Shown: one piece after another, positions 1-15,526 of the stretch
Layout: each line of letters starts with the position of its first letter
Position numbering within the stretch: the first letter of the stretch is position 1
From: Escherichia coli
Lineage (GTDB): Bacteria > Pseudomonadota > Gammaproteobacteria > Enterobacterales > Enterobacteriaceae
Length of the DNA: 32,004 bases
NCBI RefSeq assembly: GCF_003334815.1
Contig: NZ_QOWO01000042.1
Direction: 5' to 3' (one strand)
Translations under genes and position numbers: made by a program
Notes under the pieces: model-generated
Seen by the model: only the letters and a program-made list of their open reading frames with translations
Told to the model about the DNA's origin: nothing
Database searches by the model: none

Positions 1-70
1 CGTGTCAGTGGTGGCGCATTATAGGGAGTTATTCCGGCCTGACAAGAGGAAATTTAAAATAATTTTCTGA
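1..70 (-). promoter_or_regulatory. rRNA-operon P1-type sigma70 promoter with AT-rich UP element, transcribing leftward out of the window
   Basis: Minus-strand reading gives AGAAAATTATTTTAAATTTCCTC (UP element) - TTGTCA (-35, + coords ~40-45) - 16 bp spacer - TATAAT (-10, ~18-23) - GCGCCACC discriminator - start near pos 9. Matches the rrn P1 architecture from memory. Confidence 0.8.
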
Positions 71-94
71 CCGCGCATTTTTTATTCTTTATGC

Positions 95-640
95 TTATTT
101 CAGCGTCGGTTTGTCGGTTAAATGGGCGATTTCTCGGGCGAAATTCGCCACCTGCTCCCAATCGGTATAGACAACTTCTTTGCGCGTATCCGTTTCACCG
201 CCTGACATCTTCATAATCAGCTTGATCATAAAACGGTCGTACCAGCGATAACGTGGGTAACGCAGCGCCCCGGCAATGACCGCGCAGCGATCGGGACGCC
301 ATTGCGAGTTCATCAGAAACTTGCGCGCGTAGCTGTTGGTCTGTGGAGTACGCTTCTCCGGTTTGCGCGCCACCAGATTCACGGAGTAAAAGGCGCTCGG
401 CATCGAATTCAGCCGCGTCGCATGTTTTTTGACAAATTCCTGGAACGCTGAATGGTAGTGACCATAGCGAATAGAAGCACCAATGACCACACGGTCATAG
501 TTTTCCCACTGTGGTTCTTCAATGCGGTGCACATTGGCGACATCCGCCTGGATCCCCAGTTCTTTCAGTTCCGAAGCCAGGTAGGAGGCAATCTCGCGCG
601 TTTGTCCGTCCCTTGTTGAGAAAAGAATTAATGTTTTCAC
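95..640 (-). CDS. hemG: Protoporphyrinogen IX oxidase HemG (flavodoxin-like), 181 aa, GTG start
   Basis: ORF track protein [29 protein letters not shown]... recognised as HemG; start codon on the sequence is GTG (cac on + strand at 638-640). Confidence 0.93.
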
Positions 641-6466: not shown

Positions 6467-7639
<1,173 letters not shown>

Positions 7640-7645
7640 CCACTT

Positions 7646-7830
<185 letters not shown>

Positions 7831-13283: not shown

Positions 13284-15526
<2,243 letters not shown>

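Follow-up and report, generated by a model that had tools for sequence, protein, structure and literature searches.

Bases 1-94 of the 32,004-nucleotide stretch of Escherichia coli DNA analysed here (the window) are, on the minus strand, almost certainly the P1 promoter region of the rrnA ribosomal RNA operon. The promoter sits just past hemG and is directed leftward off the window edge; it is an ordinary, already known promoter and carries no novelty. The assignment to rrnA in particular is made because only rrnA matches upstream of -74 and because the flanking gene is hemG. Read on the minus strand from base 94 to base 1, the region is GCATAAAGAATAAAAAATGCGCGGTCAGAAAATTATTTTAAATTTCCTCTTGTCAGGCCGGAATAACTCCCTATAATGCGCCACCACTGACACG. 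The hemG stop codon occupies the three bases next to it, so hemG and the window edge bound the range 1-94 exactly.

The preliminary description had read an rrn-type P1 architecture on this strand, and every element it named was found where it had been placed (Table 1). An independent consensus scan ranked TTGTCA-16-TATAAT first among promoters in bases 1-1200, with 11/12 hexamer positions matched. The composite pattern TTGTCA-N16-TATAATGCGCC has a single occurrence in the 32-kb window even when two mismatches are tolerated, and was found in none of 100 dinucleotide-preserving shuffles; the match is therefore not by chance. A+T content is 18/21 over -60 to -40 (window 69 to 49), and GC falls to 27-37% across bases 41-100; the window's left edge is A+T-rich and strongly promoter-like because rrnA P1 is located there. 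The predicted +1 A corresponds to 4035239 in NC_000913.3 (rrsA start at 4035531 minus 292) and, going by sequence identity, would agree with the published start of the identical rrnB P1, a +1A located nine bases past the -10 element (PMC7822876).

Table 1. Features of the rrnA P1 region at the left edge of the window (promoter positions relative to the predicted start).
Feature	Window position	Strand	Basis or remark
rrnA leader start, +2 to +9, CTGACACG	1..8	-	same in K-12 rrnA, rrnB, rrnC and rrnG leaders
Predicted transcription start, +1 A of rrnA P1	9	-	9 bases downstream of -10 hexamer
G+C-rich discriminator GCGCCACC, -8 to -1	17..10	-	definition per PMC7822876
-10 hexamer TATAAT, consensus	23..18	-	consensus scan
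16-bp spacer, one base below the 17-bp optimum	39..24	-	consensus scan
-35 hexamer TTGTCA, 5/6 vs TTGACA	45..40	-	consensus scan
UP element AGAAAATTATTTTAAATTTCCT, -59 to -38	about 68..47	-	base for base the rrnB P1 UP element
Predicted FIS site I GAATAAAAAATGCGC, centre -71	73..87	.	perfect GNNNAWWWWWTNNNC match, top score 14
hemG coding sequence, stop codon 97..95	95..640	-	open reading frame and annotation

For each of the seven 16S genes of K-12, the upstream region was compared in register with the window minus strand, and the alignment to rrn P1 promoters that had been proposed as a check bore the reading out. K-12 rrnA P1 (rrsA p1; NC_000913.3, about 4035154-4035247) is identical at 94/94 positions over -85 to +9, shows no difference within bases 1-94, and shares both its flanks (hemG, trkH) and its spacing to 16S with the window copy. 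Both rrnB P1 and rrnC P1 match at 74/74 positions over -65 to +9, with exact identity reaching -68 (77 bp) and -74, respectively; the parts shared with rrnB comprise the UP element, -35 hexamer, spacer, -10 hexamer, discriminator, +1A and early leader. Upstream of -68 rrnB diverges, and its FIS site I reads GGTTGAATGTTGCGC as against GAATAAAAAATGCGC in rrnA. Exact identity to rrnG P1 reaches only -37, and this promoter differs only upstream of that position, whereas rrnD, rrnE and rrnH P1 match at 41-50/74 positions over -65 to +9 and differ in -35 hexamer, spacer, UP sequence and start base. The rrnC, D, E, G and H promoters all have TATAAT, a GCGCC(A/T)CC discriminator and, upstream of -35, an A+T-rich block; in most, a FIS-like 15-mer of the form G...C has its centre at -71. 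Over -85 to -66 the window agrees with rrnA at 20/20 positions, with rrnB at 7/20 and with rrnC at 12/20. The flanking genes likewise separate the copies, with hemG and trkH beside rrnA, rrnB after murI, and rrnC after yieP.

Of the leader, the window holds +2 to +9 alone and the remainder lies further left, as do P2, boxA and the 16S gene. The window thus stops 8 bases past the start, and the driven operon is known from matching public genomes rather than from the source contig. The rRNA operon anticipated to the left is there in full in K-12 MG1655 (NZ_CP032667.1, NC_000913.3), by annotation and by Rfam. The MG1655 minus strand left of the window carries 16S, tRNA-Ile, tRNA-Ala, 23S and 5S, then mobB and mobA, and on this flank Rfam recovers full-length SSU (1578 bits) and LSU (2874 bits) together with 5S and a pair of tRNAs. 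Counted from the MG1655 P1 start, +84 to +111 holds P2-type hexamers, TTGACT-16-TATTAT, in keeping with a P1-P2 distance published as about 117-120 bp (bioRxiv 10.1101/2020.02.17.953182; PMC4696680), and boxA, TGCTCTTTAACAA, follows downstream of P2. The predicted +1 and the 5' end of mature 16S are 292 nt apart, a spacing shared by rrnA, rrnB and rrnC. In 12/12 genomes inspected, K-12 and ten other divergent E. coli among them, a 16S rRNA gene comes next after hemG. Also outside the window, the rrnA spacer that separates tRNA-Ala from 23S holds an Rfam StyR-44 match (124.9 bits; L001 4237-4345, minus strand).

In reverse complement, the window as a whole corresponds to NC_000913.3 at roughly 4003244-4035247, running from rarD to hemG, with 99.95-99.97% identity to K-12 MG1655 (about 12 substitutions across 32 kb). 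The sole length difference is one extra unit of about 99 bp in MG1655 within a REP/BIME-type tandem array between fadA and fre (window 7639-7830; period 98, 1.9 copies); an Rfam naRNA4 match lies inside the array (7698-7775, minus strand). Elsewhere in the window, the Erse/EsrE small RNA of Rfam has a full-length match (319.5 bits; 14921-15172, minus strand) within the ubiJ 3' end, where K-12 is annotated with esrE, and the convergent genes metR (22334-23287, plus strand) and bioP/yigM (23175-24074, minus strand) overlap at their 3' ends by 113 bp (23175-23287). The first 25 kb are found at 100% identity in several phylogroup-A-like strains. Bases 1-700 match in 5426/5426 complete E. coli genomes (at least 80% coverage and at least 95% identity), always annotated hemG/trkH, and are 100% identical in K-12 MG1655, C600, ATCC 8739 and others.

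Ten further E. coli genomes, picked for divergence (96.3-98.8% identity over bases 1-400), were used to examine variation within the promoter. From -37 to +26, the core does not vary across the 11 divergent E. coli alleles. Upstream of it, an O157:H7 strain has C in place of T at -38, position -59, on the distal UP-element edge, is polymorphic (A/G), the A-tract of the predicted -71 site is one A longer in one strain, and there is a single change at -82. Further downstream, the rrnA leader between P1 and P2 occurs as two haplotypes at +56 to +77 in the E. coli strains compared over +27 to +146 (L010-L019 and L001), and the P2 region at +98 to +146 is divergent in one O157:H7 allele; these patterns suggest gene conversion among rrn operons.

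FIS sites were predicted by scoring all 15-mers against the degenerate motif GNNNAWWWWWTNNNC with a simple heuristic. Scores of at least 13 were obtained at only 32 of 63,978 window positions, and 14, the score of predicted site I, is the maximum. The same heuristic places a predicted FIS site at exactly -71 in rrnB, C, D, G and H as well, and gives a candidate at -143 in rrnB a score of 14 too. The footprinted FIS sites of rrnB are reportedly those at -71, -102 and -143, from work by Ross et al. in 1990. In the window, weaker candidates have their centres at about -91, -111 and -123 (window 93-139), where they run across the stop codon and final codons of hemG. The preliminary description had put the FIS sites inside the hemG 3' end. 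This does not hold for the predicted proximal site (window 73-87), and because that site is intergenic the statement can apply to distal sites only, for which it is possible. Three to five Fis sites lie upstream of P1 in the seven rrn operons, and gel shifts on rrnA gave a number of Fis sites consistent with earlier footprinting (PMC4696680).

The gap from the hemG stop codon to the predicted transcription start is 85 bp. No terminator was found between hemG and P1 in a consensus scan, and the minus-strand RNA fold of window 140 to 30 is no more stable than shuffled sequence (z = 0.32), with no stable hairpin. Since there is no intrinsic terminator before rrnA P1, trkH-hemG transcripts probably read into the promoter region. 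Variable sites in hemG among the 11 E. coli alleles number 2 in the final 120 bp and about 30 in the central 290 bp. Extra constraint on this 3' end from embedded FIS sites was considered and rejected: the first 130 bp of hemG likewise have 2 variable sites, and because the 5' end is equally invariant the invariance of the 3' end is no specific signal. The missing intrinsic terminator, together with any FIS sites beyond site I in the last codons, raises the rather doubtful idea that the hemG 3' end is dual, coding and at the same time part of the rrnA upstream activator region, with trkH-hemG read-through modulating rrnA P1 specifically. If this were true, rrnA would be regulated unlike rrnB and rrnC, though their core promoters are identical. 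A literature search on rrnA P1 combined with hemG found no paper.

No evidence against the identification as rrnA P1 was found, and three other explanations were weighed. The paralogous promoters have the same core, and the sequence could on that ground be P1 of another rrn operon (rrnB, rrnC or rrnG): it is identical to rrnB P1 from -68 and to rrnC P1 from -74 down to +9, and the median number of matching places per genome is 4, because the functional part is base for base that of rrnB P1. Upstream of -74, however, rrnA alone matches, and the sequence continues straight into hemG and trkH, the flanks of rrnA; the hemG flank refutes an rrnB, rrnC or rrnG identity, which is thus left extremely improbable. 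Among the paralogous matches, one that is perfect over 77 bp, on a record of 267 kb, had the appearance of a plasmid copy, a reading that was rejected: the record is a separately assembled piece of chromosome, and since it carries murI-rrnB the match is rrnB P1. A chance sigma-70-like match without promoter function has a vanishingly small probability and is already refuted. Consensus scans do yield false positives, with about 0.9 such sites expected per 1200 shuffled bases, but here 11/12 hexamer positions are joined by the discriminator, the full pattern is absent from all the shuffles, 77 bp are identical to an experimentally and structurally characterised promoter (rrnB P1), the placement with respect to 16S fits exactly, and E. 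coli alleles show no variation in the core.

It is also very unlikely that recombination among rrn operons in the source strain has joined the rrnA promoter to another rrn body, or that the operon is otherwise rearranged. The window ends at +9, with its own left flank out of view, the leader haplotypes and the O157 allele with its divergent P2 region would be compatible with such exchange, and there is a precedent in W3110 with its rrnD/rrnE inversion (PMC5179076). Against this, the order of hemG and then a 16S rRNA gene recurs in every genome inspected, and a hybrid operon, too, would be an rRNA operon driven by rrnA P1.

How rrnA P1 would work can be drawn from studies of the identical rrnB P1 sequence and carried over to the rrnA copy. 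Sigma-70 RNA polymerase would bind the TTGTCA/16-bp/TATAAT core, and two alpha C-terminal domains would dock on the UP element at about -60 to -40, raising initiation more than 10-fold. At rrnB P1 the UP element at -60 to -40, bound by the alpha C-terminal domains, is credited with more than 30-fold higher transcription (PMC7822876), and single-molecule work found an 11-fold effect, mainly on polymerase binding (bioRxiv 10.1101/2020.02.17.953182). FIS bound at -71 and further upstream would add activation in fast growth. A G+C-rich discriminator at -8 to -1 is a distinguishing feature of rRNA promoters such as rrnB P1, whose features together lead to an unstable open complex, quick escape and sensitivity to initiating ATP and to DksA/ppGpp (PMC7822876). 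Because its open complex would be unstable, rrnA P1 should likewise be sensitive to initiating ATP and ppGpp/DksA, and its identity to rrnB P1 (PMC7822876) points to growth-rate and stringent control (iNTP, ppGpp/DksA). Transcription would then proceed from the A at window base 9 leftward via P2 and the boxA antiterminator into 16S-tRNA-Ile-tRNA-Ala-23S-5S. The seven rrn operons have a common layout, with P1 and P2 about 120 bp apart and UP elements; Fis activates and H-NS silences them, and H-NS binding has been detected on rrnA, rrnB and rrnH (PMC4696680).

The identification touches no open question, since rrn P1 is among the best-studied promoters in biology. All seven rrn P1 promoters, with their UP elements and FIS sites, have already been characterised experimentally. 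The value of the result is one of annotation only: it identifies and orients the window as E. coli DNA running from rarD to hemG and ending at rrnA P1.
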